64,000 nt of DNA from Acidobacteriota bacterium (GTDB lineage Bacteria; Acidobacteriota; UBA890; WLXD01), in contig CAXWPH010000015.1 in the NCBI GenBank assembly GCA_963666055.2, positions 864,001 through 928,000 of the forward strand. Reading direction: 5' to 3'. Position numbers and translations under genes: made by a program. A model generated the notes under the pieces. That model was given only the letters and a program-made list of their open reading frames with translations, did no database searches and was not told the origin of the DNA. This document shows, in pieces, positions 34,338 through 55,497 of the stretch; positions within the stretch are counted from its first letter, which is position 1, and the number at the start of each line of letters is the position of its first letter.

Positions 34338-36323
34338 ATGAAGAAGAGCGATCGTGAGCTGGGCATGAACCGGGAGATCACCCGTCGCGACCTCCTGAGC
34401 GGAACGAGCATCGCGATCGCGGGAGCGGCCCTTGCGCCGGGGGAAGTGGGGGCGCAGGGACGCGATGCCCGGCTGGCTCCGGCCGCATCTCCAGTTGTCG
34501 ATCAATCTGCGATCCAGGAGACGTACTATCCGCCAACCCGTACGGGGATGCGGGGCAGCCATCCGGGGTCGTTCGAGGTGGCTCATCGCATGCGGTTCGG
34601 CGAGACGTGGGACGACCCGCAGGAAACAGGGGAAGAGTACGACCTGATCGTGGTGGGTGGCGGGTTGAGCGGTCTCGGGGCGGCCTACTACTTCCGCAAG
34701 GCGATGCCTGAGGCTCGGGTCCTGATTCTGGAGAACCACGACGACTTCGGAGGGCACGCGAAGCGGAACGAGGCCATGGTCGACGGGCGCCAGGTCATCG
34801 GCTGGGGAGGCACGACGTACATCACCGGAGCCTATACGTACGAAGGCCTGGAGTTGCTGCACGACATCGGCCTGGATGCGGAGGTGTACAGGCGTGCGAA
34901 CGTGGGACGAAGCTTACGGGCGCGAGAGCCGGATTTGGGAAGCGCGGTCTTGTTCGACGAGGAGACGTTCGGTGAGGATCGCCTGGTGGTAGGAGAACCC
35001 GGATCGGACGAGCCGGAGGCCTGGACGAAATGGCTTCGAAAGACGCCGCTCTCGGACCGGGTGCAGAAGGACATCGCGAAGCTGTACCAGACGCAGGAGG
35101 ATTACTTCCCCGGATTGTCGGTGGAGGAGAAGATCGCTCGGCTCCGCAAGATGAGCTATCAGGACTATCTGCTGAACGTCGTCGGCGTCGACCCGGACGT
35201 GATCCCCTTCTTCATGCGCCGCGGCCCGGATGCCAATGGCACGGCCGGTATCGATACGTTGAGCGGATGGGCTGCGTTCCGGTACAGCGGTTTACCCGGG
35301 CTGCAGGGCCTCGGGCTCGGGGAGCCGCCGCCGAGAGACGGATTCCCCGGGCTGGAGAATCCGTTCGATGGCATGCACTTCCCCGACGGAAATGCTGGCA
35401 TCGCCCGCCTGCTCGTGCGCTGGCTGATTCCGGGTTCGCTACCGGGCGAGACGATGAACGATTCGGTGCCGACGCGGGTCCGGTATTCGACCCTCGACCG
35501 GACGGAAAACGACGTGCGTATCCGTCTCAACAGCACGGTGGTGAACGCCCACCACGTGGGCGATCGGGCGAAGGCGAACGCGGTGGATGTCACGTACGTA
35601 CGGGACGGCCAGGCGCATCGCGTGCGCGCAGGCACCTGCGTGATGGCGTGCTACAACTCGGTGATCCCGTATCTGTGTCCCGAGCTGCCGGAGGACCAGA
35701 AAGAACACCTGCATATGGCGGTGCGCAGACCCTTCGTTGCGGCCAACGTCATGGTTCGCGACTGGCGAGCGTTCGAGCGGCTCGGTGTGGCGCGCATCCA
35801 TTGCCCGGGCGCGTACTTCGAAAGTGTCAGTCTTGACGGTTACAGCAACAGCTTCGGGGAATACCAGACCGCCCAGTTGCCCGACGAACCGGTCGTCGTA
35901 GGGCTCTGGGCATCTCCGATCGCTCCGGGGCTCCCCGTACGGGACCAGTGGCGGGCCGCACGGGAGGAGCTTCTGGCCATGTCGTTCGAAACGTTCGAGC
36001 GTGGCATCAGGGATCAGCTTGCTCGTGCCCTGGGGGAGGGAGGCTTCGATCCCGCCCGGGACATCGAGGCCATCTTCGTCAACCGCTGGCCCCACGGGTA
36101 CGCGGGCGCAGGCAATGACCTCTTCGACCCCGACTGGGGGTACGACGAGGCTCCCTGGGTATTGGGCCGTAAGCGGTTCGGGCGGATCGCCATCGCCAAC
36201 TCCGACGCGGCCGCGTCTTGTCTTACACAGGCGGCGTTCGACCAGGCACATCGAGCGGTCCAAGAGCTGATCATCGACGTCATTCGACCCGAATTCCAGT
36301 ATCCGTGGGCGGAGAGGACCTAG
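34338..36323 (+). CDS. Spermidine dehydrogenase (SpdH)-like FAD oxidoreductase, Tat-exported
   Basis: ITRRDLL, YYPPTRTGMRGSH, VVGGGLSG, GGHAKRNE, HFPDGNA, NRWPHGY, IANSDA. Confidence 0.88.
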   Translation: MKKSDRELGMNREITRRDLLSGTSIAIAGAALAPGEVGAQGRDARLAPAASPVVDQSAIQETYYPPTRTGMRGSHPGSFEVAHRMRFGETWDDPQETGEEYDLIVVGGGLSGLGAAYYFRKAMPEARVLILENHDDFGGHAKRNEAMVDGRQVIGWGGTTYITGAYTYEGLELLHDIGLDAEVYRRANVGRSLRAREPDLGSAVLFDEETFGEDRLVVGEPGSDEPEAWTKWLRKTPLSDRVQKDIAKLYQTQEDYFPGLSVEEKIARLRKMSYQDYLLNVVGVDPDVIPFFMRRGPDANGTAGIDTLSGWAAFRYSGLPGLQGLGLGEPPPRDGFPGLENPFDGMHFPDGNAGIARLLVRWLIPGSLPGETMNDSVPTRVRYSTLDRTENDVRIRLNSTVVNAHHVGDRAKANAVDVTYVRDGQAHRVRAGTCVMACYNSVIPYLCPELPEDQKEHLHMAVRRPFVAANVMVRDWRAFERLGVARIHCPGAYFESVSLDGYSNSFGEYQTAQLPDEPVVVGLWASPIAPGLPVRDQWRAAREELLAMSFETFERGIRDQLARALGEGGFDPARDIEAIFVNRWPHGYAGAGNDLFDPDWGYDEAPWVLGRKRFGRIAIANSDAAASCLTQAAFDQAHRAVQELIIDVIRPEFQYPWAERT

Positions 36324-36524
36324 GTCACGACCGCCTCATGAAGGAGCCCTGGGGCTGCTTGCGGAGAACCGCATGAGCAACCAGGACGATAGAACCAGGA
36401 AGTCGAACCGGCGGTGAGCGGGGCCACGGCGGGGGCTGCCTATGGGACAGGAGAGCATCACCGGTCTTCCGGCCAACGGAAGCCGGGGCACGGTAGATTG
36501 TCCGTTCCCAGGCAGGACCCTCCC

Positions 36525-38021
36525 ATGACCAGACGAATCCGTCCGAAACGCCACTTTCTCGGCGCCTGCGCAGCCCTGTCGGTGATTTTCCTGCTCGGAT
36601 CGTGCGGGCCGGAGACAACCGTGGAGGAGCCGTTCGCAGCGTCGTCTCTGCGATCGCCCAACATCATCCTCATCCTGGCCGACGACATGGGCTACGGGGA
36701 TCCGCGCAGCTACAACCCAGATTCCAAGATTCCGACGCCGCACATGGACCGCCTGGCTGCCGAGGGAATGCGGTTTACCGATGCGCATTCGCCCTCCGGC
36801 GTTTGCACGCCTACGCGTTATGGGCTCCTGACCGGGCAGTATTCCTGGCGGACCCAGCTAAAAAAGGGCGTTCTCCTAGGCTATTCGCCCAGCCTGATTG
36901 ACACGAACCGGACGACGGTGGCGTCGTTGCTGAAGCAGCACGGCTATGCCACCGGCGGCGTAGGAAAATGGCACCTGGGCCTCGGCGATGAAGCGAGGAC
37001 CGACTACAGCAAGCCGCTGCGCCCAGGCCCCGCGTCGCTGGGGTTTGACTATTACTACGGGATCCCCGCATCGCTGGACTTTGAGCCGTATCTCTACTTC
37101 GAGAACGACCGCGTCGTCGAGGCGCCCACCGCCCGCACCGAAGGCAACCTCGAATGTTGTTTCGGCGCGTTCTGGCGGGAGGGGGCGATATCGCCGAGCT
37201 TCGAGCACGATCAGGTGTTGCCGATCACTGCCGAGAAGGCCGTCGCGTTCATCGAAGACCGGGCCGCGACGGAGCAGCCCTTCTTTTTGTACGTTCCCCT
37301 GTCGGCGCCCCACACGCCATGGTTGCCGCTGCCGCCGTACGTGGGCACGACCGAGGTCGGCGAATACGGCGACTTTACCGCGCAGGTAGACAGCGTCGTC
37401 GGTCAGATCCTCGACGCGGTGGACCGGCTGGCAATTACGGACAACACGCTGGGTATCCTCACCAGCGACAACGGCGCTATCTGGCCGCAGAGCAAGATCG
37501 ACGAGTTCGGTCACCGGGCCAACCTGAACCTGCGCGGGCAGAAGGCCGACATCTGGGAGGGGGGCAACCGGGTTCCGTTCATCATCCGTTGGCCCGGCCA
37601 CATCGCGCCGGCTTCGCAGAGCGACGCCCTGGTCTCGCTGACGGACATGTTGGCTACCTTTGCTGCCATCGTCGGAGCGGAACTGCCTCGTGACGCCGGG
37701 GAGGACAGCTACAGCCTGCTGCCCGTCCTGCTGGGTGAGAATCCGGAGACGCCCTTGCGCGACGCCGCTATCCATCATTCGGCGGACGGCATGTTCGCCA
37801 TCCGGCAGGGACCGTGGAAGCTGATCGAAGGGCGCGGCTCCGGCGGCTTTACCGAGCCGATCCGCATCGAACCGGGGCCGGGTGAGCCCGCCGGGCAACT
37901 TTACAACCTGTCGGAAGACCTCGGCGAGACGAACAACCTCTACCGGCAACACCCCGATGTGGTGGCACGCCTGACAGCGCTGCTGGATCAGTACCGGCAA
38001 CAAGGCCACAGTCGCCCGTGA
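36525..38021 (+). CDS. Arylsulfatase (lipoprotein)
   Basis: PNIILILADDMGYGD, CTPTRYGLLTG, GKWHLG; lipobox LLGSC. Confidence 0.93.
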   Translation: MTRRIRPKRHFLGACAALSVIFLLGSCGPETTVEEPFAASSLRSPNIILILADDMGYGDPRSYNPDSKIPTPHMDRLAAEGMRFTDAHSPSGVCTPTRYGLLTGQYSWRTQLKKGVLLGYSPSLIDTNRTTVASLLKQHGYATGGVGKWHLGLGDEARTDYSKPLRPGPASLGFDYYYGIPASLDFEPYLYFENDRVVEAPTARTEGNLECCFGAFWREGAISPSFEHDQVLPITAEKAVAFIEDRAATEQPFFLYVPLSAPHTPWLPLPPYVGTTEVGEYGDFTAQVDSVVGQILDAVDRLAITDNTLGILTSDNGAIWPQSKIDEFGHRANLNLRGQKADIWEGGNRVPFIIRWPGHIAPASQSDALVSLTDMLATFAAIVGAELPRDAGEDSYSLLPVLLGENPETPLRDAAIHHSADGMFAIRQGPWKLIEGRGSGGFTEPIRIEPGPGEPAGQLYNLSEDLGETNNLYRQHPDVVARLTALLDQYRQQGHSRP

Positions 38022-38124
38022 TGGAGAGAGTTGGAGCTACATGGACCTCGCGATCTACGCCGCACGATGATCTGTGCACACACCTGCCACGAGAGCCGAG
38101 GGACGAGCGGCGGAAGGAGAGAGG

Positions 38125-38619
38125 ATGATCGAGGAAAGGGATGGCTGGTTTGTGAAGAACGTCAAGGACGCGCCGTGGGAGCAAACCGAGGCGTTCGGAA
38201 AGGTCTGTTGGTTCGATACGGAGGATCCGTTCCCGCAAATCGGGATACATATCTTCTTGCTCGAGCCTGGCAAGCCGAACTCTCGCTACCACCGGGAAGA
38301 GGCGCAGGAGGACTTCCTCGTCCTGGCCGGGCGCTGCAAGCTGCTGGTTAACGGCGAGGAACGCTCGCTGGAAACCTGGGATTTTGTCCATTGCCCGGCC
38401 GGAGTGTCCCATGTCTTCGTCGGTGTCGACGGGCTATGTGCTCTCTTGGCGATCGGGCACCGACCCGACAGGGAAAAGGAGCAGCTGTTCTACCCGGCCA
38501 GCGAGCTGGCCCGCCGATACAACGCTGAGACTCCCGAACCCACGGGCGATCCGGAAGTCGCATACTCGGACATCAGGCAGCGGGTCAGGATCGATCCGCC
38601 GAAGTGGCCGATAGTGTAG
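38125..38619 (+). CDS. Cupin domain protein
   Basis: LEPGKPNSRYHREEAQEDFLVL, HCPAGVSHVF. Confidence 0.88.
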   Translation: MIEERDGWFVKNVKDAPWEQTEAFGKVCWFDTEDPFPQIGIHIFLLEPGKPNSRYHREEAQEDFLVLAGRCKLLVNGEERSLETWDFVHCPAGVSHVFVGVDGLCALLAIGHRPDREKEQLFYPASELARRYNAETPEPTGDPEVAYSDIRQRVRIDPPKWPIV

Positions 38620-38657
38620 GGCGCACCGGGATTCGAACCTGGGACTTCCACCGTGTG
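38619..38657 (-). other. 3' half of tRNA-Val(CAC), att-like remnant 1
   Basis: gggcgcaccgggattcgaacctgggacttccaccgtgtg, identical to 40959-40997 and homologous to the tRNA at 55425. Confidence 0.9.
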
Positions 38658-38830
38658 TTCAAGCGACACACTTGACGATGGTTGCTATCCCTTGACGTGG
38701 CTTGAACTTACGGGCTGGTGGTTTTGACGTCAGTTGGGTCTGTTTGACGCTGTTTGCACCCGAAATGTCAAAGGAATTGTCACAGGCTCGATGAGGAGCT
38801 TTCGAGTCGAGTGAGCTCAACAGGGCCGCG

Positions 38831-40795
38831 CTAGCGCACGAGCGTGCCGAGCAACCTATTGACCGCCGCTATCGTGCCTTCCGGACCGGAGAGCCCCTGG
38901 CATTCGCTACAGTCCCATACCTTGGCCATGCGAATCGAGATCAGACCCTGCGGGTACATGATTACCTGGTTGGAGCCGGCGCCGAAGGCGCCCGGCAAGT
39001 AAACGACCGCGCCGCCATCGAGATCGACATGCGGCGTGAGATGGAAACCCATCTTGTAGAGTCCCTCGCCGGCTGCCAGCGGCACTGGCGCGCGTCGGCC
39101 GAATGCGGCAGCGACGGAGAGATCCGTTTCCTTGGTGATCGCGCCCTCGGTGCTGAAGATCTGGGCGGCCAGCCCCCGGTGCAGGAGTTGCTCGCCGTCG
39201 TGTTGGCCGAGGTTCTGGTACAGGGTGAAAATCTTGGCCACGTCGTCGAGGGTCACGTAGATGCCGGCATGAAACCAGGGCAGACCTAACTCTCCATCGG
39301 CCTCGCGCGTCCTTACGATCGGCGCGTGATGGATGCCGATGGGTGCGAGGACCTCCTCCTCGAGCATCTCCCAGATGTCGGCGTCCGGGCCCCTGACCGA
39401 CCTCAGGAACCCGTCGGTCGCAGCGCCGAGCAGGTGAAAGTCGCGATCGCGATAGCGCATGACGATCCCCGCTCCCCAGGGATACGGCGAGCCGTTCTCG
39501 GTGATGCTGGCGATCTTCTCGGCGTTCGAAAACGCGCCGTTGTACCAATCGTCATAGGTGTCGTCGACGTAGCCATCGCCGGTGCTGTTAGGACTGGTAA
39601 CTGAGCTTCCATGGCCACCCATGCCAGTGGCCATGTTGGCGGCGTCGATGAAGCGCACGTCGTCGTACTCGGGATCCAGCCCGGCGACGTAGTCGCCGAT
39701 CTTCAGGTCGAGCACGTAGGGACCGTAGACTTGCGCCAGACGACCGAGCGCCAGGGGCACCGTAACCGACTTGGCCACCGATCGCGGCCCGAACCGCATC
39801 TCCTGCGGATACGGATAGGGCCCGTAGGGGGTCTGCGATCCCTGGTGGTAGACAACGCCGTCGCGGACCAGGGCCTTGGCGACCACATAGTTGTCCGGAA
39901 GCGGGCCGCCAAAACCCTCGAGCGTTGCTTCTGGCAAACCCTCGTCCGCCAACGCCGTCACCAACTCGCCCCAGGGTCGCAGCGGCAACCTCGCCGCCAA
40001 CTCTGAATCGACCCGGGCTCGCCGGGCCTCGAGATTGCCGAATGCCCCCGCTTCGAACGACGCTTTCGCCGCGCCCCAGGCGACGAAGTGCACCGGAATG
40101 TTAAATGGCGCCGTCTGCTGGACAAACTGAAACCGCAGATCGGTGACCTCGCCACCGGCGTATAGAAAACTCGCGAGGCCTTGATGGGCGTGATTCTCCA
40201 TGTCATGTACCAGCATCAGGGCGAAGGCGGCGCGCGACCAGTCGCCATCGCCGGGCTGTCGCCACACACGCCCGTACTGCGGGATCACGTGCCAGTAGCT
40301 CCGGCTACCACCGGTGCGTTCGTCTCCAAGCATTTCGCCGATCTGAATCGCGGCGAGAACTTCGCCGGCGGTGAACAAGTCCAGAGTGAACGCGGGCAAC
40401 AGGCGCTTGTCGTGGCCACCCCGGCACGACCCGCCCAGCTCGACCGCCGAGCCATCGCACACCGGCTGCGGGATCTCGGGTTCAAACAGCATCCGCGTCT
40501 GCTCGATGGCAAGCCGCACAGCAAGCGCCGGAGCCGGTGTGGCGTCGCTGGGGGGATAGAAGCCGGCGTTGTCGACCGGAGCTGCCAGATCGCTGCCGGA
40601 GAGCATCATGTCGAGCGGCAACGGCGTCGAATCAGAAGAGATTTGCACGGTGCTCGATGACGGCTCGTCTACCCCAGCATCGGTCACCGCCCGCACACCG
40701 GGTCCGTCTGCCGGGCCACACGCACCGACAACGGCGACGGCCAGTAGCCAGCGCAGCCTCGCGAAGTCTCTGGCGTCGGCCGCGGGGTTCTTCAT
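38831..40795 (-). CDS. Serine hydrolase (beta-lactamase/AmpC-like), lipoprotein
   Basis: SVAK (SxxK), NMATG, YRDRD; lipobox VVGAC. Confidence 0.82.
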   Translation of the reverse strand: MKNPAADARDFARLRWLLAVAVVGACGPADGPGVRAVTDAGVDEPSSSTVQISSDSTPLPLDMMLSGSDLAAPVDNAGFYPPSDATPAPALAVRLAIEQTRMLFEPEIPQPVCDGSAVELGGSCRGGHDKRLLPAFTLDLFTAGEVLAAIQIGEMLGDERTGGSRSYWHVIPQYGRVWRQPGDGDWSRAAFALMLVHDMENHAHQGLASFLYAGGEVTDLRFQFVQQTAPFNIPVHFVAWGAAKASFEAGAFGNLEARRARVDSELAARLPLRPWGELVTALADEGLPEATLEGFGGPLPDNYVVAKALVRDGVVYHQGSQTPYGPYPYPQEMRFGPRSVAKSVTVPLALGRLAQVYGPYVLDLKIGDYVAGLDPEYDDVRFIDAANMATGMGGHGSSVTSPNSTGDGYVDDTYDDWYNGAFSNAEKIASITENGSPYPWGAGIVMRYRDRDFHLLGAATDGFLRSVRGPDADIWEMLEEEVLAPIGIHHAPIVRTREADGELGLPWFHAGIYVTLDDVAKIFTLYQNLGQHDGEQLLHRGLAAQIFSTEGAITKETDLSVAAAFGRRAPVPLAAGEGLYKMGFHLTPHVDLDGGAVVYLPGAFGAGSNQVIMYPQGLISIRMAKVWDCSECQGLSGPEGTIAAVNRLLGTLVR

Positions 40796-40956
40796 GGATG
40801 CCCTCTCACCTATGTTCGAACTTCTTGATGCTGCCGTAGCAGTCTGATGCAAATCAGATTGGAGCGACAGGGGCATGATCAGCCCGCCGCCCCGAGGAAT
40901 CGGAGGGGGAACCTGACGTAGGCGAGAAGTCCTTTGACCACAGGAGGTTGGAGAGA

Positions 40957-40997
40957 GTGGGCGCACCGGGATTCGAACCTGGGACTTCCACCGTGTG
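40957..40997 (-). other. 3' half of tRNA-Val(CAC), att-like remnant 2
   Basis: Same 39-bp block as 38619; followed by palindrome ctatctctaatgattagaggtag and repeats ttatccac/ttacccac. Confidence 0.9.
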
Positions 40998-41162
40998 GGA
41001 CAAGGACGTGTTTGCCGTCGATAGCTATCTCTAATGATTAGAGGTAGTTACGTCATCGGTCATTAGCGGTTGTTGGCCGCAATTAGCCCCTTTTCACAGC
41101 CAATTATCCACGGATTACCCACAAGATCGGGCGTTCGGTTGTGCGCCGGCCAGGTCAGGCGG

Positions 41163-41228
41163 CTACGGGTCCATCGGCACGAGCCGCTTCAGCTCGTCGA
41201 ACCAGTTGAGAGCGACGTGGATCTGCGT
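41163..41228 (-). pseudogene. C-terminal remnant of Ser/Thr kinase-TolB-type protein
   Basis: TQIHVALNWFDELKRLVPMDP*. Confidence 0.7.
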
Positions 41229-41380
41229 TACATGGTCCAGAACTGCACGTTACGCAGCATCTCGGCATCACCACCATGCGGGGTGCGGCCTCAGCGCTCG
41301 GCCTGGACATAGTGGCGACGCTGTGCTTGCATCGAGCGCTATCTACAAGGGCGTGTTTGCCAACATCGGATAGGTGTGTC

Positions 41381-43456
41381 ATGAACAAGAAGAAGCGTGA
41401 TCGCGCACTCGGCATGGATGCAGAAATCTCACGGCGGGATTTCCTGGACGGCGTGGCCGTGACCGTCGGGGGGACGATGGTGGTCTCCACTCTGGCAGGC
41501 GGCACCCCCGTACAGGCGCAGACGGCATCCCCGCCACCGCCGATGTCCGCTCCGCAAGCCGCACCTTCGGATTACCCACCCATGATCCAAGGGCTCCGCG
41601 GGCAAACTGACGCGGCCATGAATGCGGGGCATGCCGTCCGCGACGGGACAGCGTTCAGCGCCCCGGTCGATACCGGCGAGTTCTACGACCTGGTTGTCGT
41701 GGGTGCCGGCATGGCCGGACTTGGCGCCGCCTATTTCTATCGGAAGCAGATCCCGCATTCGAAGGTCTTGCTGATCGATGGGTGCGAAGATTTCGGGGGC
41801 CACGCCGTGCGCAACGAATTCATGGTGGACGGCACGCGCCTGATTGCGGGCGGCGGCACCGCCGCCCTCTGGCGTCCGAATACGTTTACGCCCGAGGCGC
41901 AGGAGCTGATGCGCGATATCGGGATCGACCGCGCGCACCATGATAGAGAAGTGGCCAACAACCCGAACGCGCCGCGAGAGTTGGGTCTCCGGCGAGCGGT
42001 GTTCTTCGACAAGGAGTCCTCTGGTGAGGACCGGCTCGTTATGGACCCACCGCCCGAATTGGGCCTCCGGGGCCGCAGGGGCGAGGAAGGGACGACGAGT
42101 GCTCAGTTCGCCGAATTCTTTGCCCAGACGCCGTATTCAGCCGGCACCCGAGAGGGCTTGTTGAAGCTGTTCACCGAGCACCGTGATTGGATGCCCGGGG
42201 TCCCGACCGCGGAGAAAGTCGAGCAACTCAAGAAGATGAGCTACATCGACTTTGTGAGCAACGTCGTCAAGATCCATCCCGACGCGGTAGCCCATGTCCT
42301 CTCGGTGGGCGGCACGGGCGGGACCAACCAGACCGCCGGTCCGGACACCTATAGCGCCTGGTATGCCTGGCGGAAGGGCGCACCCGGCTTCAACGCGATG
42401 GCTCTCCCGCCCGCCTCGCAGTTGTCCAACCTGGTCAAAGACCCGGGGCGGAACATCGCCTGGCCCGACGACGCGACCACCGCGGCGCGGCTCTTGGTCC
42501 GGTGGCTGATACCGGACGCCTTGCCAGGCCGCACGGCGGATGATTCGGTCTTGCAGCATATCGATTACGCCGCCTTGGACCGTCCGACGAGCGATGTGCG
42601 CATCCGCCTTTCAAGCATGGTCATCCGCGCCAAGCACCTGGGCGACCCGCTGACCGCGAAGGAAGTCGAGGTGACCTATCTGCGTGACGGCCAACCCCAC
42701 ACCGTCCGTGCGCGCGGCGTCGTGATGGCCTGCTTCAACGCCATCATTCCCTACCTGGTGCCGGACCTGCCGGAGTCCCAGAAGGCTGCGCTACATATGG
42801 CGGTGCGGAAGCCGCTCGTCGCGACCAATGTGGCCATCCGTAACTGGCGTGCGTTCCAGAAGCTGGGCGTCTCTTCGATCAACTGCCCAGGCATGTTCTG
42901 GGCGTCGATCGGGCTCGCCGTCCCAGCGGCCATCGGCGGGTATCAGAACGCGTCCACGCCGGACGAGCCGATTGTCGTCCGGATGTCCCTCACCGCTCGC
43001 ATCCTGGAGAAGGCGGGCTCCGGGCTCTCGCCGCGCGAACAATGGAAGGCCAGCCGTACCGAGCTGCAGGAGATCACCTTCGAAACATTCGAGCGCAACA
43101 TCCGCGAACAGCTCGATCGCGTCCTGGGACCTGGCGGCTTTGACGCAAAGCGTGATGTCGCGGGTATCATCATCAACCGCTGGAGTCATGCCTACGCCCC
43201 CGGGTCGAATGAGCTGTACGATCCCGACTGGTCACACCGGATGGATGCTCCATGGGTGGTCGGGCGTCAGCAATTCGGTCGGATTACGATCTCGAACTCG
43301 GATGCCGCGTGGGTTTCGCTCACGAACGCGGCGTGGCAGCAAAGCCACCGCGCCGTGAACGAGCTCATCTGCAACGTGGTTCGGCCGGTGTTCGATTGGC
43401 AGTGGTCCGAAAGTATGCACGCCGGCGAACCCGGCGACTATCCGAACAACTTCTAG
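41381..43456 (+). CDS. Second SpdH-like FAD oxidoreductase, Tat-exported
   Basis: ISRRDFL, VVGAGMAG, GGHAVRNE, NRWSHAY, ISNSDA; paralog of 34338. Confidence 0.88.
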   Translation: MNKKKRDRALGMDAEISRRDFLDGVAVTVGGTMVVSTLAGGTPVQAQTASPPPPMSAPQAAPSDYPPMIQGLRGQTDAAMNAGHAVRDGTAFSAPVDTGEFYDLVVVGAGMAGLGAAYFYRKQIPHSKVLLIDGCEDFGGHAVRNEFMVDGTRLIAGGGTAALWRPNTFTPEAQELMRDIGIDRAHHDREVANNPNAPRELGLRRAVFFDKESSGEDRLVMDPPPELGLRGRRGEEGTTSAQFAEFFAQTPYSAGTREGLLKLFTEHRDWMPGVPTAEKVEQLKKMSYIDFVSNVVKIHPDAVAHVLSVGGTGGTNQTAGPDTYSAWYAWRKGAPGFNAMALPPASQLSNLVKDPGRNIAWPDDATTAARLLVRWLIPDALPGRTADDSVLQHIDYAALDRPTSDVRIRLSSMVIRAKHLGDPLTAKEVEVTYLRDGQPHTVRARGVVMACFNAIIPYLVPDLPESQKAALHMAVRKPLVATNVAIRNWRAFQKLGVSSINCPGMFWASIGLAVPAAIGGYQNASTPDEPIVVRMSLTARILEKAGSGLSPREQWKASRTELQEITFETFERNIREQLDRVLGPGGFDAKRDVAGIIINRWSHAYAPGSNELYDPDWSHRMDAPWVVGRQQFGRITISNSDAAWVSLTNAAWQQSHRAVNELICNVVRPVFDWQWSESMHAGEPGDYPNNF

Positions 43457-43469
43457 GGCTCACGGCGAG

Positions 43470-43580
43470 CTTGAGGTCATCGGCCAGGTAGGCCGTTGCC
43501 ATGCCGCCCTCGCCCAGCTCACGCTCAATGGCGTAGCGGCCTTCGAGGGCTGCGTTGAGGCGGGTGACGGGATCGGACAT
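43470..43580 (-). pseudogene. N-terminal remnant of Ser/Thr protein kinase
   Basis: MSDPVTRLNAALEGRYAIERELGEGGMATAYLADDLK (Gly loop) then breaks; RBS ggag. Confidence 0.85.
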
Positions 43581-43791
43581 ATGCGCACTCCAGGATCAGA
43601 CTGCGCTCAACATCCGAGAGCGGGCCGGTAGGCGCAAGCAGAAGCCCGTCAGACGCTGAGAAGCTCGCCTGTTACGAGTTGCTCGTGCCTTTCTAGGCCG
43701 TCCTCAAAATTTGGTGCGTACGCCTGAGCAGGAGTCACACGCGTATATACAGGCCCCTCTTGGGGGGAACCCGCCTTTCGAGGAGAGCGGG

Positions 43792-44988
43792 TCATAATCT
43801 ACCCAAGCCAAATTGGTCACCTGCCTTGGTTACTTTGCCGTCTTGCATATGTATCTCAATCATCTTTTCGCTGCAAACGGTGTTGTAATTTTCATCTTTC
43901 AACAAGTACAAAATTCTCCGTGTCTTGGTATGAATCACTTCGCCACTAGATGCATAGGCATACTGACCATCTATACTAAAAGTGACCCAACCCGGCATAT
44001 CACGTAGTGCAATGGTGGTGAGCTGTTGATAAGGGGCTTCTCCGCTAAAGACATGCATTCGCATATTATGGCCATCGCTAATCCATATCTCTTTTTCATC
44101 TGGGGTCAAAGCTATACCGTGACTTGGATTTTCATGTCGTTGTACGGGACCTTTGTCCCAACCCTGGACCTGAACACTCGCTACCTTTTCTCCTGTTTTC
44201 AAATCACCCACTTCAAATCCCAGTAAATCATCAACGTTCACAAACACAAGCGACTCGTCGCTCTTGATGGTAAACGGTCGCACAGGCCCACTAAAAAGGC
44301 CTATTTTCTGTACGACTGTGTGCGTTTTGGTATCTGCAACGTACAACCAGGGAGATTTATAATCCGCCATATATGCTCGATTTCCTGAAGGACCGTAAAT
44401 CGTGTTGTGTGCACTGGTATCTACTACGATCTTGGCAATGACATCACCGGTTTCGGTATTCACGACATTCCAAAACTCTTTTTCTAAGGATGGCAAATAC
44501 ATGGTCATCCCATCAGGTGAAATTGACATACGGTCACAGCCGCCCTCAAAAGCGATGTCCCACAGCACCTCTTCCGTACTCAGATCTATTCGCTGCATAC
44601 CTTCCAAGGTGGTGATATAGACACTGTTGAGCGGCACACTGACATCAATGCCCTTGACATTTGACGGGCTGCCATCTTCATGGAACCCCCTAGTGCTAAT
44701 TCGTTTTACAAAGTTGTGATTGTTGTCTATATCAAAAACCAGCAATCCGTGACCCCCATAGCCCAAATAATCTCTGATACCAGGAGTCGCTACATACAGG
44801 TAGTGGCCGGTACCCCCTGTTGCCACAGGTTCATCTATGGGTGGAGGACTTGGTATCATCGAAGCGGTGCTAGCGGCCGCGGCTCCCGGCGCGAGGACCG
44901 TTCCCGCGATCGCGATGCTCGCCCCGTTCAGCAAGTCGCGACGGTTGATCTCCCGGTCCATGCCCAGCTCGCGGTCGCTCTTCTTCAT
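43792..44988 (-). CDS. YncE/YVTN-like beta-propeller with SpdH-type Tat leader (chimeric)
   Basis: LYVATPGIR..GGHGLLVFD, GCDRM, PSHGIALTPDE; AT-rich body, GC-rich leader. Confidence 0.82.
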   Translation of the reverse strand: MKKSDRELGMDREINRRDLLNGASIAIAGTVLAPGAAAASTASMIPSPPPIDEPVATGGTGHYLYVATPGIRDYLGYGGHGLLVFDIDNNHNFVKRISTRGFHEDGSPSNVKGIDVSVPLNSVYITTLEGMQRIDLSTEEVLWDIAFEGGCDRMSISPDGMTMYLPSLEKEFWNVVNTETGDVIAKIVVDTSAHNTIYGPSGNRAYMADYKSPWLYVADTKTHTVVQKIGLFSGPVRPFTIKSDESLVFVNVDDLLGFEVGDLKTGEKVASVQVQGWDKGPVQRHENPSHGIALTPDEKEIWISDGHNMRMHVFSGEAPYQQLTTIALRDMPGWVTFSIDGQYAYASSGEVIHTKTRRILYLLKDENYNTVCSEKMIEIHMQDGKVTKAGDQFGLGRL

Positions 44989-45162
44989 TCTCAGGTCTCC
45001 TCGAGGATCGAAGTGTAGGCCCCGGAATCCAGTTCCATTTCTTCAAGCTCTGATGATAGATGGCACGCGTCCTAAGCACCATCACCCAAACAATGTTCAC
45101 TGATCACTAAATCCAACCCCCAAAACACTCGCGTGCCAGAGCCAACAGCGGCGGTCCAACGC

Positions 45163-45381
45163 TCACCGCGGTCTCCTCATTCGCCGCACCTTGCCACGCT
45201 TGATGCCGAGCGACGGCACTGTTCGCTGCACCTGCTCCGACCTCCATCGTGCGACCAAGTGCTTGTAGTTCTCCTCGATCATCTTGGTATCGGAATGACC
45301 GAGCTGTTCGGCCAAGTCCGTCGGCGATCCGCGGTTCATGAGGTAGGCGCTCGCATAGTGGCTTCGGAACTGATGGACCAG
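45163..45381 (-). pseudogene. Tyrosine integrase C-terminal remnant
   Basis: HQFRSHYASAYL..LAEQLGHSDTKMIEENYKHL (HxxR, LGH, catalytic Y); not in ORF track. Confidence 0.75.
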
Positions 45382-45465
45382 GCCTTCCTGCTGATCTGGT
45401 TATTTTTTTCCGCGGCCATCATCGCCCACGGCGCCTGGGGCCTGCTCAAGGACTAGTCGAGCGCG

Positions 45466-47130
45466 TCACCGAACCGTTACCGCCTCGCTTGGCGCGTAGC
45501 CCAGACGATGTGCCACGGCGTGCAGCTGGTGCCCGGCCGGCAGCGTTACCGGTTCCGTGTAGACGTGCCACTGCGTCCCCGGCATGCCGCCCTCGGCCAC
45601 CACCTGGTATCCGATGGAGGCGCCTTCAGTAGCGGAGTGGATCGTGATCTCATTGCCGTCGCGTTGGATTCTCGGAGCCATCGTCGGGGGCTGTTGTCGG
45701 CCCGGCCAGAACTGCTCCAGCAAGTCGGCTTCGGGGATGAGGCCCTTGTCGTCGGTGGCTTCCATCCAGCGGTCGAGCTCGGCCCGGAGGTCGGCGAGCT
45801 TGGGGGCGTAGGTCGGGTCAGCGGCAAGGTTACGGAGCTCGTGAGGGTCGGCGGCAGTATCGAACAGCTCTTCGCGCGGCTTGGACGGGCGGAACCACTG
45901 CGCCTGGTATTCATCGAGGCCGCCGGCATCGCGCAGTCGTAGCAGCTCCTGCATCGTCGCCATCTGCTCGCGGTAGGTCACCGCCAGGTAGTAGCCGCGC
46001 TCGGGCTGGAAGTTACGCAAGTACTTGAACTGGCTGTCGCGCACGGCGCGGATCGTGTCGTATTCGGTGTCGAGGCGATCGGCGGCGGCGTGGACGTAGC
46101 GGCGGGGCTCGGCGGCGCGCGCGGCACCGAGGAACGCTCTGCCCTCGACGTAGCCGGGCACCTCGATGCCGGCCAGGGAGAACGTGGTCGGGGCGAAGTC
46201 GACGAAGCTGACCAGCTGATCGTCGACAGCGCCGCCGTACTGGGCATCGGGAAAGCGGATGATCATCGGAACATGTAGGCCCGAGTCGTAGAGCAGGCGC
46301 TTCTGACGCGGCAATGGGCCACCATGGTCGGCGTACCAGACCACGATGGTGCGCTCGAGCAAACCGTCGGATTCCAGCTCGGCGAGGATCTGCCCGACCT
46401 GTTCGTCCATCTCGACGACGTTCGAGTACATCCGCAGCACATCACCGCGGACAGCGTCGGTGCGGGGCAGGTAGGGCGGGATGGGCACGTCCAGGTCGGC
46501 GTCCACCCGTAACGGATCGTCAGCCTTGGCCCAGATCTGCGACTCGTGCGTGACGCCGAAGTTGAAAACCGAGAAGAACGGAGCTCCCGACGGGCGATCG
46601 CGCCAGTGGGCCTCGCCGCTGCTCGCGTCCCAGGCGGTCACCGGCGCGGTGAGCTGGTAATCGTGCTTGGCGTTGTTGGAGGTGTAGTAGCCGTTGCGCC
46701 GCAGCACCTCGCTCATCATCCGGACCTGCGGAGGCGGCACGGTCTCATAGGGGAGGAGGCCGATGGCGTCCATGTACGCCTGCCGCGAGCTCGTACGCAT
46801 GTTGTGGGCGCCAGCGCTGGTGGTGTAGACGCCCGTCGCCAGTGAAAACCGGCTAGGTGCGCAGACACCAGAGACCGAGAACACATTCCTGTAACGCACC
46901 CCTTCGCGTGCCAGCCGATCCAGGTGGGGCGTCTTCACGGTGGAATCGCCGAAGGCGGCAAGGTAGGGGCTCATGTCCTCGGCCACGAGCCATAAGAAGT
47001 TGGGGCGGGACGCCTGGTCGAGGCTTGGATAGCCCACCGGCGGGTCGGACAGCGGGGGCTCTGACCGCTGCGTGTCACACCCGGCGCCGACGAGCAGCAG
47101 GGTCAGGATGACGGCGGCGAGGTTCTTCAT
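45466..47130 (-). CDS. Sulfatase (lipoprotein)
   Basis: PNFLWLVAED, CAPSR, DHG, KRLLYDSG; lipobox GAGC. Confidence 0.92.
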   Translation of the reverse strand: MKNLAAVILTLLLVGAGCDTQRSEPPLSDPPVGYPSLDQASRPNFLWLVAEDMSPYLAAFGDSTVKTPHLDRLAREGVRYRNVFSVSGVCAPSRFSLATGVYTTSAGAHNMRTSSRQAYMDAIGLLPYETVPPPQVRMMSEVLRRNGYYTSNNAKHDYQLTAPVTAWDASSGEAHWRDRPSGAPFFSVFNFGVTHESQIWAKADDPLRVDADLDVPIPPYLPRTDAVRGDVLRMYSNVVEMDEQVGQILAELESDGLLERTIVVWYADHGGPLPRQKRLLYDSGLHVPMIIRFPDAQYGGAVDDQLVSFVDFAPTTFSLAGIEVPGYVEGRAFLGAARAAEPRRYVHAAADRLDTEYDTIRAVRDSQFKYLRNFQPERGYYLAVTYREQMATMQELLRLRDAGGLDEYQAQWFRPSKPREELFDTAADPHELRNLAADPTYAPKLADLRAELDRWMEATDDKGLIPEADLLEQFWPGRQQPPTMAPRIQRDGNEITIHSATEGASIGYQVVAEGGMPGTQWHVYTEPVTLPAGHQLHAVAHRLGYAPSEAVTVR

Positions 47131-47177
47131 CGCGCTCCCGTATGACGGTGTGTAGCCCCGTGCTGATTTCGAGTTAA

Positions 47178-48346
47178 GGAAGGTCTGATCAATTGGCCGT
47201 CAGTCAGGATGGAGCCTGATTGGAGGAACTGGTCGGCATAAGGGTGGGAATGCAGTCGCCCTCCGAGCTGCTGCCGACGGGTTCAACCGCGACGGCGGCC
47301 TCTCAGGGTGCCTGTTTCAGGTGTGCGCGAGCAGCACCTTGCGTGCCATGAATAGGTTGGCCAACGCGCAGGTCACGAAGAGCCGGTGCGCGTTCTTGTG
47401 GAGCCCTCGGTATCGGACCTTTCTGAAGCCGAAGATGCGCTTGATCACCAGCATCGGGTGCTCGACTTTGGCCCGCACCTTCGACTTGGTGCGGTTTCGA
47501 GCTCGGTCTCGCTCGGTCAGTGGCCGGTGACGGTGCCCTTTCTTGTTGGTGAAGTCCTTGGCACCGGGAGCACACCGGACAATGACCTCCCGTCGGCCCG
47601 TATAAGCGCTGTCTCCCCACACCCGCGTCTCCTGCCCATGCAGCAGATCCTCTAGCACCTGGCTGTCATGGACATTGGCGGCGGTGGCCACGACCGAGTG
47701 AATGAGCTTGGATTTGCTGTCCACACCGAAGTGTCCCTTCATCCCGAAGTACCATTGGTTGCCCTTCTTGGTCGAGCGCATCTCCGGATCCCGCTGCTTG
47801 GCCTTGTTCTTGGTCGATGACGGGGCGGTGATGATCGTCGCGTCGACGATGGTGCCCGTGCTGACCTTCAGCCCCCGCCCCTGCAGGTGCTCGGCAACGA
47901 TGTGGAACACCTGCACGCCCAGCTCGTGGGTCTCCAGAAGGTGCCGGAACTTGCACACCGTCGTCTCGTCCGGCGCCGGCTCCCGTCCCAGATCGATCCC
48001 CACGAAGGCACGCATCGCCCGCGAGTCGTACAGCGCCTCCTCCACCCCCGGGTCCGACAGGTTGAACCACTGCTGCATGAAGTAGATGCGCAGCATCCTC
48101 TCCAGCCCGACTGGGCGCCGTCCCGCTCCCTTCGGCTTCGGATACACCGGCTCGATCAAAGCGCACAGCTGGGCCCACGGCACCACCTGATCCATCTCTG
48201 CCAGGAACCGCTCCCGGCGGGTCACCTTCCGGTACTGCTCAAAGGACCCTTCGGCAAGCGTCTGCTGGCGCATTCCCTTCTCCCTCTGGCGGCGTGATCG
48301 GATCCGCGTGCATTATCCCATCGAACCCGAATTGATCAGAGGTTCC
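47178..48346 (-). mobile_element. IS5-family insertion sequence, complete
   Basis: TIRs ggaaggtctgatcaatt / aattgatcagaggttcc (15/17); TTAA duplicated on both sides. Confidence 0.93.
47317..48273 (-). CDS. IS5-family transposase
   Basis: PDETT..FRH, IVDAT, KKGNQWYFGMK, GDSAY, RAKVEHP. Confidence 0.95.
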   Translation of the reverse strand: MRQQTLAEGSFEQYRKVTRRERFLAEMDQVVPWAQLCALIEPVYPKPKGAGRRPVGLERMLRIYFMQQWFNLSDPGVEEALYDSRAMRAFVGIDLGREPAPDETTVCKFRHLLETHELGVQVFHIVAEHLQGRGLKVSTGTIVDATIITAPSSTKNKAKQRDPEMRSTKKGNQWYFGMKGHFGVDSKSKLIHSVVATAANVHDSQVLEDLLHGQETRVWGDSAYTGRREVIVRCAPGAKDFTNKKGHRHRPLTERDRARNRTKSKVRAKVEHPMLVIKRIFGFRKVRYRGLHKNAHRLFVTCALANLFMARKVLLAHT

Positions 48347-48425
48347 TTAACTTGACAGTACCCCCCCCGGCTCATCGCGCCGAGGGACTTGCTCCATCTC
48401 CCGTTCAGTTTCATGTCCGGAACGC

Positions 48426-49553
48426 CTAGTTCGTGAGAACCAATCCTCGGCCGACGAGCTTTATGGGATCGGCTCCGGGCTTCGGAACGAACTTGCTCAA
48501 CCATCCGCCGTCCCAGCTGGCGACATAGACGTTGCCGTCCTGGTCCACGTCCATCTGGTGTGGACGCGCGAGGCCACCAGGAAAGCCACCCCTCGTCCCG
48601 CCGAACGCACCCCAGTGGTACTGGAGGACCCCGTCCAGGTTGTACCTGAGGATCCGGTTCAGTGCCGCAGAAACCACCCAGACCGCGTCATTCTCGTCGA
48701 TAAAGATTCCGACGGGATCGGTGACGTCGGGCCACTCCTCGATGAACTCGCCGTCTTCCGTAAAGACTTGGATGCGGTCGTTGTTCCGGTCGCCGACGTA
48801 GATGCGGTGATCGCGGTCCACGGCGACGCCGTGGATGAGGTCGAACTGTCCGGGGCCGCTCCCGACCGAGCCGAACTCCGACACGAGCTCGCCGGCCGCG
48901 TTGTACCTGGCGATACGACCGTTCTGGTAACCGTCCCCGAGCAGAAAGTCGCCGTCCGGGAGGAAGGTCATCACCGAGGCCTGGCCGAAGTCGAGTGGTC
49001 CCGGGTTCTTGTTCGCCCGTGCCTCCTCCCCGCTCTGGCGCGGGTTGGGGTCGATGAGCCGCATCACGATCTGTTTGCCGTCGTTGGAGAACTTGATGAC
49101 CTGCTCGTGGATGTCTCTGGTTCCTCCGCCGCGCTCGACGAGCCAGATGTGGCGCTCCGGGTCGTAGGGGCTGATGTAGACCTGGTGGGGAGTGTTGAGC
49201 ATGGTGTCCCACTGGGTCCAGCGCTCGACGATGTCCCCGTTCCCATCGACGACCACCATGTAGTTGGAGCTGTCCGGCCGCTCTTCGCCTTCGGCGTTCC
49301 GGTCGCCCCACACTGCAACGATAATCCGGTTCGGATTGTCAGCCGCCACACCAGAGACCTGACCCCAGGTCCACTCCTCGTCGTGGTCTGGCGCCGGCTT
49401 CCACCAGTCTGCCACCGGATCGTATCCTCCGGTACGGTCGTCCCCGCCCTTCATGGCCGCCTCCTGTGCGGCCTGGTCCTCACCAGCGCAGGCTGGGAGT
49501 ATCGCCAGCCCAACGGCGAGGAAGAGGGCCACGCCCATGCGCTCTAGTCTCAT
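48426..49553 (-). CDS. NHL-repeat beta-propeller lipoprotein (PAL-like)
   Basis: Lipobox LPAC; DGYQNGRI, GSGPGQFDLIHGVAVD, DRNNDRIQVF. Confidence 0.88.
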   Translation of the reverse strand: MRLERMGVALFLAVGLAILPACAGEDQAAQEAAMKGGDDRTGGYDPVADWWKPAPDHDEEWTWGQVSGVAADNPNRIIVAVWGDRNAEGEERPDSSNYMVVVDGNGDIVERWTQWDTMLNTPHQVYISPYDPERHIWLVERGGGTRDIHEQVIKFSNDGKQIVMRLIDPNPRQSGEEARANKNPGPLDFGQASVMTFLPDGDFLLGDGYQNGRIARYNAAGELVSEFGSVGSGPGQFDLIHGVAVDRDHRIYVGDRNNDRIQVFTEDGEFIEEWPDVTDPVGIFIDENDAVWVVSAALNRILRYNLDGVLQYHWGAFGGTRGGFPGGLARPHQMDVDQDGNVYVASWDGGWLSKFVPKPGADPIKLVGRGLVLTN

Positions 49554-49647
49554 CGTCAAATCCTCTCGCGGAAAGGCTTTCATAGAAGCCGATAGAAAGG
49601 GCCGCCGTTCACATGCGGTTCAATTCAGCGGCTCGAGACAGGCCGCG

Positions 49648-49900
49648 GACACTGTCAACTTTACCTGGGCGACGCACGGATTTGGGCGAGTTCTGGCCCT
49701 GAAGCTGGGTTCCTTCAGACGGTGACTACCTCACTCCAGGTCCCAAAAGCGCTCGTCCGAAGTACCCGGTAGTCCGCGGATCGTAGTCGGTGCCGGCTCA
49801 GGTTGAAGAGATTCCGGACGACAGCGTGCACCGACAGAAACCGTTGAGCTTGAGCCGCAGACTTGAACCTCCGTATCTGTCGCTCGCGCTGCCGTGTCTA
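49648..49900 (+). mobile_element. IS6-like element start remnant
   Basis: gacactgtcaactt end, related to ends at 32016-32029 and 48349-48362; no transposase follows. Confidence 0.4.
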
Positions 49901-50640
49901 TTACCAGAGCTTGTCCACCTCATCGGTGAGACCCGTCAGCTCCCAGTGGGCGAGCGCGAACGGGATGAGGCCGGCGGCGAGAATCTCGTCGATCACGTCG
50001 GGCATGTTGAAGTCGTCGCCGAGCTGGTGGGCGCGGTCGGCGATGATCTTCTCGAACTGGCTTCTTCCCACCGGATACGCCACCTGATATCCGGGCGCCC
50101 TTACGGCGTCGCGCTTGTGGTTCCACATCGAGCTGCTGTCGGCAATCGCCCAGCCGTAGGGAGTCATATCGGCCTCGAACTGGTTCCACCCGGCGTAGTC
50201 CACGGCGTTGGCAATGAACTGCAGTTCCCCCATCGCCCGGGCGCCTTCGTAGGCGTACTCGATAACCTGGAGCTCTCGGGCTCGGCGCCCCGGTCGCTCG
50301 TCGTAGACGCCGGCGTGCATGAGCACCTCTTCCAATCCGCCGGCGAACCCCTCCCAACGGGGATGGGTCAACTCGTAGAGTCGCCGGGCGGCGCGTATCG
50401 GCGACTGAGTACCCGTCTGCCGGATGGAATCGAGCCCGTGACCGATGTCCTCGTGGATGATGTTCATCTTGGGGTTGCGGGCGATCAGGTTGGTGAAGAA
50501 CGACATCGGCCGGCCCATCCATTCCGTCGACGCCGGTATCGCAACGTCACCGATACGGGCGTAGGCCTCGGCGATGTCGACGAATCCTCGTTCCCGGAGG
50601 AATTGCAACAGCTCATCCTCCGCCTCGGCATAGGCTCTGG
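49901..50640 (-). pseudogene. DUF885-like protein, C-terminal fragment
   Basis: HEDIGH, EGFA..LEE, PGYQVAYPVG, GDDFNM..ILAAG.IP; no N-terminus. Confidence 0.6.
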
Positions 50641-51170
50641 TGCAACCGACCACGGCCGCGGGTGTGTTTTGCATCCCTTCGGGGGCCATGCTGCACGCTG
50701 ACGAGATCGTCACAAGGCACCTTCAGGCCGCTGTCGCGGCGCTGAACGCCCGCCGATGGCGCTACCTATTGATTGACACCCCGCCGTCGCTGGGGCCGGT
50801 TACGATCGCGGCGATGGCCGCTTCTGCTGGGGTGATCGTGCCCGTGTCGGCGACACCGATGGCGCTTGATCGCGTGGCAGCCACAGTGGCTCAGGTTGAG
50901 GCCGTGCGCGCCGGGCTCAACAAGGCGCTACGAATTGTCGGCCTGGTCGTCTGCCAGGCGAAGGTGCGGACGCTGGTCTACCGCGACGTGCGGGGGATGC
51001 TCGAGGAGCAATACGGCGCGCTGGTGTTCGACACGGCGGTACGGGACACCGTGCGGATGGCAGAGGCACCCTACTACCGCGAGTCGATCATTACCTACGA
51101 CAACACCGGCACCGGAGCCGAAGACTACCGGTCACTGGCAATCGAGTTTGAACGGAGGGCAATGAGATGA
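50640..51170 (+). pseudogene. ParA-family ATPase, 5'-truncated
   Basis: IDTPPSLG, VIVPV, VRMAEAP, GAEDYRSLA; Walker A missing. Confidence 0.8.
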
Positions 51171-51544: not shown

Positions 51545-51691
51545 AGGAGCGACCACGACATTCGAGGCAATCGCAGACTGCCGGTCGCCGGCAGTGCCGT
51601 CGTGGCGGTGCTGCCGGCTATTGGGCTGGTGGATGCGGTGATGCCGCAGGAGATTCCCGAAGTAATAGATGCGTAGTCGAGGACTAGTCCT

Positions 51692-52936: not shown

Positions 52937-52963
52937 GACACTCGGCTGCTTGATAGAAAAGCT

Positions 52964-53236: not shown

Positions 53237-53270
53237 TGATGACGATGGTGATGATGATGGTGATGATGAT
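53232..53270. repeat. Imperfect (GAT)13 microsatellite
   Basis: gatgatgatgacgatggtgatgatgatggtgatgatgat. Confidence 0.85.
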
Positions 53271-53344
53271 CGGCACCCTTGACCCCATGGAGCAGCCTGA
53301 CCCCATGGAGCTCCAGCAGCGGGAACCCTAACTGGGAACCGCAT

Positions 53345-53381: not shown

Positions 53382-53391
53382 TAGTCCTGTC

Positions 53392-54575: not shown

Positions 54576-55424
54576 CTGAGGCTGATGACATCGACGAGGA
54601 TGATTGGGTGCGGCTCGAGATGCCGAACCTGAAGCCATCGACCAAGCAGATCGAAAAGCAGGACCCTGATGATGGCGATCCTGATCGACCTGATCGCGGT
54701 GATGTGTAAGCAAAGCACCCTCTTTCGAGGCGTTCCATGAGCGGAGTTCTCATAGCCATCGTCGTAATCGTGATCGCGGTCTATCTCGTCCGTGTTCGGG
54801 GGATCGGCGTCTATCGCGACGATGATGAGTAACCCGGCAAACGGTGGAAGTGCGCCGCGCGAATCTTCTAGGGGCTCGCTGGTGAAAGGCTCCCCGGCCC
54901 ACCGTCCGTAGCTTCCGGTACGACTGGTACCGAGACGGTGCCCACGGTGACCTCATGGAAGGCGGTGACCCCATGGAGCTCCACCCTGCAGAATCCTGAT
55001 CGACCCTGATCAACGTAGGGGACTCCGGAGTTCGAGTGCCCTGGGCAGGTAAATGCCGCCGCACGGTTCGGAAGAGCCCGTCGCCGGCAATCGCAGCTGC
55101 GAGATCCTCGGGGTTGGGATCGATATCGGGCGACCGAGACCCTGGCGGCCGGCTATATAGAACTGCTCCATGCAGGACGTCTACCTTGCCGAGATTTCCA
55201 GCGCCGCGGCGATGGTGACCCCATGGCGCAGACTCCATGGAGCACCCCGGCCCCCTGCTCCCAAAGCAGCGGTGGCCCTACGACAGGCTACGAATCCGGG
55301 CTCATGCAGAGGCGGTTCGAGGGCCGGAACATACCGAAGAAGTACCGACGGACGTACCTCTGGTGCGATCAACAAGGTACCGGTAACGGCTATAAAGCCA
55401 ATGTCTTCAGTGAGTTGAAAGGAG

Positions 55425-55497
55425 TGGGCGCAGCAGGATTTGAACCTGCGACTTCCACCGTGTGAGGATGGCACTCTAGCCGCTGAGTTATGCGCCC
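55425..55497 (-). tRNA. tRNA-Val(CAC)
   Basis: GGGCGCA acceptor, stem ccatc/ggtgg with loop CT-CAC-AC, gcagg-TTCAAAT-cctgc T arm; CCA not encoded. Confidence 0.95.

Follow-up and report, generated by a model that had tools for sequence, protein, structure and literature searches.

An SpdH-like enzyme gene between kinase gene ends of two lineages in an Acidobacteriota island: probable exchange through short conserved coding ends

Integron cassettes are recognized by their attC arrays, a hairpin, an integrase and a fixed cassette border. The promoter/stem-loop (PeSL) repeats of T4-like phages are short conserved repeats between unrelated variable genes, at which homologous exchange takes place in plastic regions (PMC4122927). 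The lpl tandem paralogs of Staphylococcus aureus recombine within islands at a conserved stretch and retain the 3' end, spacer and next 5' end together as one unit (PMC2568036), and homology-facilitated illegitimate recombination, described along with orphan arrays of Rhs, contact-dependent inhibition (CDI) and type VI secretion system (T6SS) genes, combines one homologous anchor with one non-homologous junction, brings in foreign DNA and leaves orphan fragments behind (PMC5361080). Here we analysed a stretch of 64,000 nucleotides (the window) from the genome of an Acidobacteriota bacterium (assembly GCA_963666055.2, contig CAXWPH010000015.1, positions 864,001 to 928,000), in which the gene of an enzyme related to SpdH of Pseudomonas aeruginosa lies inverted between two stumps of kinase-propeller genes, one consisting of first codons (the head) and one of last codons (the tail). 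We read the locus as a case of repeat-anchored module shuffling whose repeats are the coding ends of signalling genes, with cargo that bears no relation to those genes. On the basis of sequence comparisons, the enzyme gene likely moves among the islands of related bacteria by homologous crossovers in the short conserved kinase ends, a reading to which we assign a probability of roughly 60%. Full-text literature searches yielded no description of kinase gene ends as exchange points.

The locus resembles integron cassettes in its same-strand arrays and in the conserved short sequence that separates gene-sized cargo, but differs in having no stable hairpin, no intact integron integrase in this genome, no fixed border or crossover point (the inner junctions are scattered) and cargo in both orientations. 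In contrast to the PeSL repeats of PMC4122927, the repeats here are the coding ends of a kinase family in bacterial islands. They fall into two kinds, head and tail, can flank cargo that is inverted, and explain a minority of the module ends. Short conserved repeats between unrelated variable genes were found here as well, and relatives that differ by exchange at the repeat were seen for this cassette and for a second one (L069), with a genome-wide excess that was marginal or absent. As regards a promoter/terminator composite, a conserved stretch precedes the host heads; a consensus scan found no promoter or terminator at either stump. The unit of 3' end, spacer and next 5' end known from lpl was found at 20 tail-head junctions of one family. 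The conserved site of lpl, however, is described as lying mid-gene and shuffling paralog halves (PMC2568036), while here both ends are conserved and unrelated genes replace the middle; no mid-gene conserved site was found in the kinase family, in which synonymous identity was highest at the ends and lowest in the propeller. Conserved ends and scattered inner junctions match the anchor model in pattern only, with the difference that the cargo here is metabolic and unrelated to the anchor gene and that the anchors are short and dispersed over many islands. The best reading would be ordinary homologous exchange after an illegitimate first joining, similar to that model as described in PMC5361080.

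The features of the locus are listed in Table 1. The original prediction had described two kinase stumps on the same strand and in the correct order around an inverted 2-kb enzyme gene, and all of these were found exactly where it had placed them. The tail was also said to abut an attachment (att) arm, and indeed a 62-bp stretch begins at most 4 bases past the tail stop and is followed by a copy of the tRNA-Val 3' end. A 95% match to this stretch lies behind another tail on contig C14, where the DNA upstream of the tail is a kinase propeller fragment. The stumps are no chance resemblance: over its 37 residues the head shows 97% identity to a full-length kinase, and blastn gave 98 further matches to the tail in the genome, with a conserved core (41208-41162) common to about 97 copies. 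The head stops one codon before the DLKH found in the copies of relatives, and the GGAG upstream of it is spaced 7 bases from the ATG. Its upstream leader occurs once in this genome, although the summed contig depth in public runs is 1336-8672 over 43483-43724 versus 2-64 over the enzyme gene; because it is so deep in public runs while single copy here, the leader is likely part of the same foreign multicopy unit as the head.

Table 1. Positions of the cassette, its kinase stumps and the neighbouring island features in the window
Feature	Position	Strand	Remarks
tRNA-Val(CAC)	55424..55497	minus	left end of island
Low-GC beta-propeller gene	43792..44988	minus	SpdH-family leader 45005-44885 fused in frame
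Upstream leader of head	43581..43724	minus	GGAG 43591-43588; outer limit approximate
Kinase head stump	43470..43580	minus	37 codons, reads MSDPVTRLNAALEGRYAIERELGEGGMATAYLADDLK; foreign (Gemmatimonadota-type) lineage
SpdH-like FAD/heme flavoprotein gene (predicted)	41381..43456	plus	691 amino acids, inverted relative to stumps
Kinase tail stump	41163..41228	minus	21 codons and stop, reads TQIHVALNWFDELKRLVPMDP; host RLVPTDP type
Arm-like stretch, 62 bp	41098..41159	minus	also directly behind tail on contig C14
Copy of tRNA-Val 3' end	40947..40997	minus	right attachment site, ~165 bases past the tail stop
Second copy of tRNA-Val 3' end, 39 bp	38619..38657	minus	bounds adjacent 2.3-kb segment, also present in congener G002

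Evidence for exchange at the kinase ends came from close copies of this gene, 83-95% identical at the DNA level; four congeneric genomes contain them at 6 loci, 9 metagenome contigs carry further ones, and the sites are unrelated. Two of these 15 copies have the same sequence, and L016 and L052, which are identical downstream, were counted once. On the tail side, 13 distinct copies including that of the window could be scored: seven carry a host-type tail, one a foreign-type tail fragment (L054) and five no tail. All seven copies with a host-type tail have different downstream flanks, with the switch starting at the stop codon, and four of these seven flanks are met again in this genome, following tails whose upstream DNA is unrelated (95%, 96%, 79% and 74% identity). 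On the head side, a clear remnant was found in 7 of 11 scorable copies, a trace in two and nothing in the other two. In three of the 11 (L011, L015 and L057) host head or promoter sequence is joined in register to foreign codons. Given the tail-flank switches at the stop codon and these hybrid heads, crossovers in the kinase ends likely moved the cassette. L051 and L052 share the propeller neighbour of the window but have lost most of the head; this suggests that the full foreign head seen in the window is the older state.

Head and tail have different affinities. The head matches a kinase-propeller family, for which Gemmatimonadota is the commonest phylum, in 36 of its 37 residues; it matches a large family at 92-97%, and its nearest clusters are mostly from Gemmatimonadota (few of their members have a record). 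All five full-length proteins retrieved with this head end in NWFEELKERVGN-like tails and none in RLVPTDP. The host kinases begin with MEPGTKLG or MIGKTLG, unlike the head in the window. A DNA search found no second copy of the head in this genome and none in 10 other genomes of the family, and gave matches of 73-76% in 2 of 15 genomes of the sister family. The tail, in turn, is of the host's own RLVPTDP type. As judged from these comparisons, head and tail come from different kinase lineages, not from one hollowed gene, and the word shell, implied by the earlier idea of a single emptied kinase gene, therefore overstates the locus. Of the top 120 matches to the head, 22 lose kinase sequence right after the DLK motif (short proteins come out high in this ranking, and some of the matches are from short contigs). 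Kinase heads were also seen fused in frame to unrelated cargo, for instance in an open reading frame (ORF) of 852 amino acids in this genome (C15:414845-417403). A sulfatase from another genome (P0240) bears the foreign head in an in-frame fusion. Mini-kinases, in which a head is joined almost directly to a tail, occur in both lineages (C2:361859-362013 and protein P0185).

That kinase-TolB (propeller) genes are multicopy in Gemmatimonadota and Acidobacteriota, as the original prediction had stated, was borne out, and in this genome it is above all their ends that are dispersed. The tail gave 99 blastn matches including itself, most copies being orphaned; one false tail match was dropped and 97 tails were analysed. 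A census of fragments in the genome counted 58 heads and 57 tails; among the longer pieces, 26 were from the 5' side and 6 from the 3' side, and there were also 27 internal pieces and 21 fragments spanning a whole gene. Profiled by gene part (one of two identical kinase copies on C8 dropped), the first 20 codons matched 102 loci and the last bins 81-83, compared with 48-49 for the catalytic region and 17-30 for the propeller; the catalytic region is as conserved as the first 20 codons, yet was found at about half as many loci. Outside intact family genes, orphan fragments lay at 82 loci for the head, 0-2 for mid-gene parts and 68 for the tail. The same profile for the 30-member SpdH family gave 7, 0 and 5-6, and no end peak of orphan fragments was found in six other multicopy families (7-16 members). 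Within the genus, the five genomes contain 57, 29, 15, 11 and 1 copies of a 32-base core of the tail. This core occurs in at most two copies in 5 of 21 genomes elsewhere in the order, and in 0 of 35 genomes of other families; it is identical in 25 copies in this genome and in 5-9 in each of three congeners. Rare-codon positions in the tail are nearly fixed (CGG in 63 of 66, versus a genome frequency of 0.23, in a set selected by DNA). In 13 intact genes picked by protein motifs, synonymous identity between the two kinase subfamilies was 0.65 for the tail and 0.47 for the head, compared with 0.38 for the interior of the kinase part and 0.32 for the propeller. The raised synonymous identity at the ends fits repeated exchange; selection on DNA would look alike.

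The flanks of the tails are mixed as well. The 15 tails of one upstream family lead into 12 downstream families, and the 13 tails of one downstream family come from 10 upstream families, with homology on both sides fading at varied distances. Twenty tails run directly into the next head, 16 of them with the same upstream family. At the inner junctions, heads end anywhere from codon 15 to codon 166. Neighbouring kinase fragments lie on the same strand in 103 of 115 cases. Genes beside heads are co-oriented in 37 of 56 cases, which equals the local baseline (64%), and promoter donation was therefore rejected as the main reason for the persistence of heads. In 20 tandem kinase pairs stop and start overlap (TGATG), an A-type end PTGGS being followed by a B-type start (for instance C6:270600 and C8:31318), and translational coupling is likely for such pairs. 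A kinase-rich segment is present as an inverted duplication (C8:28279-40880 and 55619-66941), either real or an assembly effect, and is counted twice in the genome totals.

How general such exchange is was assessed by the pairing of stumps and by the ends of shared blocks. The original prediction had proposed a search for stumps within 10 kb of each other, and this did return 14 head-cargo-tail arrangements in the genome, more than with random strands (6.7 +/- 2.1 expected, 0 of 2000 as high). Since the number was not above that obtained by shuffling labels (10.6 +/- 2.6, with 257 of 2000 shuffles as high), the signal is one of same-strand clustering and not of pairing. The outcome that, by the original prediction's own account, would refute it (stumps from unrelated kinase lineages that pair no more often than chance) was half borne out: the lineages differ, and the head-then-tail order is not above the shuffled labels. 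We further compared shared blocks (at least 88% identity) from 42 kinase-rich regions of the congeners G002, G003 and G004, which had been selected for holding stumps. Core DNA was sampled in three 20-kb stretches of G004 taken without selection, most of which is 76-85% identical to this genome, whereas the kept island blocks were 88-99% identical. Out of 278 block ends, 15 fell at tails, 6 at heads and 7 at internal pieces. A null with uniform positions (p 2e-6 for tails) was rejected as too lenient, since block ends are mostly non-coding (223 of 252); 13 blocks of insertion-sequence size had been dropped before the non-coding and the 3'-end tests. Of 17 cases in which a block reaches a tail, it ends there in 14; for the other gene 3' ends that are reached, the same holds in 116 of 199 (one-sided p 0.04, odds ratio 3.3). 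Both borders of the second cassette (L069), which G002 shares at 96% identity, lie inside kinase ends.

Several of these results weigh against a leading role of the kinase ends. As many as 250 of the 278 block ends lie away from kinase fragments, and one insertion-sequence family gives more multicopy ends (24) than the tails (9). Against the non-coding null, neither the tails (14 of 223 versus 4.6%, p 0.15) nor the heads (6 of 223, p 0.94) were enriched, there being no head excess at block ends in any of these tests; per feature, 15 of 52 tails compared with 125 of 536 other 3' ends (p 0.23). The p value of 0.04 is uncorrected and comes from one of several tests on non-independent blocks. When six other such head-cargo-tail arrangements were searched in four congeners, only one was a clean cassette, three had their cargo shared without the stumps and two had no close copy. 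The tail core is only about 47 bp long. A ComEC-family gene is present once per genome in four of four, but the family was also found in 10 of 14 control genomes. Finally, five of the 13 scorable copies have no tail, and the enzyme gene therefore also moves without one. The earlier proposal that conserved ends act as recombination anchors is thus partly sustained, by the orphan excess, the synonymous likeness and the crossovers of this cassette at both ends, and limited by the block ends, most of which lie elsewhere: the kinase ends would be one of several classes of crossover point, neither the main route nor a dedicated cassette system.

The main rival holds that the stumps are debris with passive ends: kinases decay, their ends survive beside needed promoters, terminators and att arms, the enzyme landed between unrelated remnants, and the switches of the tail flanks reflect a general habit of modules to break just past gene ends. 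It would account for the null tests, with no enrichment against non-coding DNA, where the block ends lie anyway, and with head-tail pairing at chance; the conserved stretch upstream of heads and the position of tails near tRNA genes and att copies are in line with it too. It does not explain the in-register hybrid heads, the flanks that recur behind other tails, the higher synonymous identity seen at both ends in intact genes or the lack of strong end peaks in seven other families, and promoter donation was not in excess while this cargo is inverted; we regard it as possible, though rather unlikely. More doubtful is a role of the tail core as the site of a dedicated recombinase, integron-like or an island tyrosine integrase, with the cargo as true cassettes. 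The many identical copies of the 32-base core, the nearly fixed rare codons, the same-strand neighbours, the clustering of tails at att sites and the 29 tyrosine-integrase matches in the genome could all be expected of such a site. A site-specific enzyme is disfavoured by the scattered inner junctions, the absence of a stable single-strand fold (z -1.1 to +0.6 in six of six folds) and the absence of an intact integron integrase here, in addition to the fading of flank homology at varied distances and the lack of any integrase match within this island. An integron was ruled out on the same folds and on the best integrase match in the genome, which scores 149 bits against a cut-off of 265 and contains a stop. 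The broken integron-integrase match of this genome lies at C10:50422, and of four genomes one has an integron integrase above the cut-off (G002:C8:1214363-1215181, about 17 kb from a kinase cluster).

The idea of the original prediction, a single kinase gene emptied by one replacement that left both its ends, is largely refuted. Strand and order are right, the head-to-tail span of 2.4 kb is near the 2.7 kb of a full kinase gene, and in a related copy (L054, 89.5% identity over 1 kb) a fragment of a foreign-type tail occupies the corresponding place; the spacer to the tail in L054 is unlike that of the window, however, and the lineage of the head ends in other tails (five of five) while the tail of the window is of host type. 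That the arrangement is an assembler chimera at multicopy repeats is highly improbable. Both stumps are repeated sequences whose depth in public runs is very high, and none of the listed public-run contigs covers the whole head-to-tail stretch. In run X1 (which may be the source sample), however, one contig covers 41182-43362 and another 43420-43556, bridging both junctions, the tail junction is also bridged in runs X2 and X5, and these junctions are also present in four further genomes as well as on separate metagenome contigs.

If crossovers in the kinase ends do move the enzyme gene, illegitimate recombination would first have joined it to a Gemmatimonadota-type head and to a host-type tail, in separate events. 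Equipped in this way, the module would be able to recombine into any island of the genus that carries a kinase gene, where a crossover in the tail would provide the downstream DNA of the recipient and one in the GGM codons a host head or promoter. The recipient here would likely have been an island whose kinase tail adjoined the attachment arm, and repeated rounds would keep the ends alike and leave them as orphans, with the middles lost. Integrative islands likely supply the vehicle, since tails are enriched beside tRNA genes and att copies (8 of 97 tails within 500 bp, versus 1.4% of random sites). A wider version, in which kinase-propeller ends would form a cross-phylum address system, kept alike at the DNA level in Gemmatimonadota and Acidobacteriota, and the SpdH-like gene would be an import with the head of its donor, is put forward tentatively.

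Large kinase-propeller expansions, as seen in Acidobacteriota and Gemmatimonadota, are commonly taken to reflect signalling capacity. Most kinase copies in this genome are stumps (21 whole-gene copies versus 58 heads and 57 tails), and kinase counts from such genomes are inflated by them. Should the ends be crossover points, the protein family would double as a dispersed recombination scaffold, and species that are about 80% identical in their core would trade island genes at 88-99% identity, perhaps across phyla. Under an address system, any gene that gains a head or a tail would become portable between the islands of both phyla, and the huge kinase expansions would persist partly as recombination scaffolds. 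Short-read assemblies break at stumps, as illustrated by a single tail match in the 240-contig assembly G001 versus 11-57 in four well-assembled congeners.

The predicted product of the enzyme gene is an SpdH-family flavoprotein with flavin adenine dinucleotide (FAD) and heme, a distant homolog of SpdH. Its ORF matches the solved structure of SpdH (PDB 7d9f; E 5e-115, aligned residues 16-662), the heme ligands of P. aeruginosa SpdH, His54 and His562, have His84 and His603 as their counterparts in the alignment, and an FAD-binding motif and a twin-arginine-like leader are present. The likeness to SpdH thus extends over a full-length alignment, the FAD motif, both heme histidines and the leader; the difference is that the gene is a distant homolog and belongs to a family with 30 members of at least 300 amino acids in this genome, the largest paralog cluster found there. 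The substrates of distant SpdH homologs are not known according to PMC12564564. The nearest paralog in the genome is 47% identical, versus 70-94% for the top 37 outside homologs, and the nearest atlas clusters are from Pseudomonadota and Acidobacteriota. A second SpdH-like member lies inverted between kinase stumps at C15:1039781-1042737.

Upstream of the head, the leader of the low-GC propeller gene is 78-88% identical to the starts of SpdH paralogs. The fusion is retained at 89-96% identity in L051, L052, L077 and L137, the propeller gene accompanying the cassette in the first two and occurring without it in the other two. This looks like the capture of an export signal via another multicopy gene start.

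The cassette lies at the end of a 14.4-kb tRNA-Val island (40998-55413), which was inserted here, since in G002 the tRNA-Val gene is joined straight to the DNA beyond 40997 (40997-38789, 99% identity), the empty allele of a relative. The island thus has the duplicated tRNA 3' end and the empty allele of tRNA-targeted integrative islands, but no integrase of its own: of the 29 tyrosine-integrase (PF00589) matches in the genome none lies in it (C15:905000-919400). It encodes a DDE transposase (47317-48273), a ParA-like fragment (50640-51544) and a HipB-like helix-turn-helix protein (53802-54113). An Rfam scan of 36000-56000 found tRNA and no other RNA element. A tRNA-Arg predicted by ARAGORN at 38604-38680 is likely spurious, as it overlaps the second att copy on the other strand without confirmation by Rfam. 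Between both att copies, a 654-amino-acid ORF (38831-40795, minus strand) without a Pfam or NCBIfam match is 99% conserved in G002. Orphan copies of tRNA 3' ends were present at 36 sites of the genome (Met, Leu and Thr above all), several of them clustered, pointing to nested and scrambled integrative elements.

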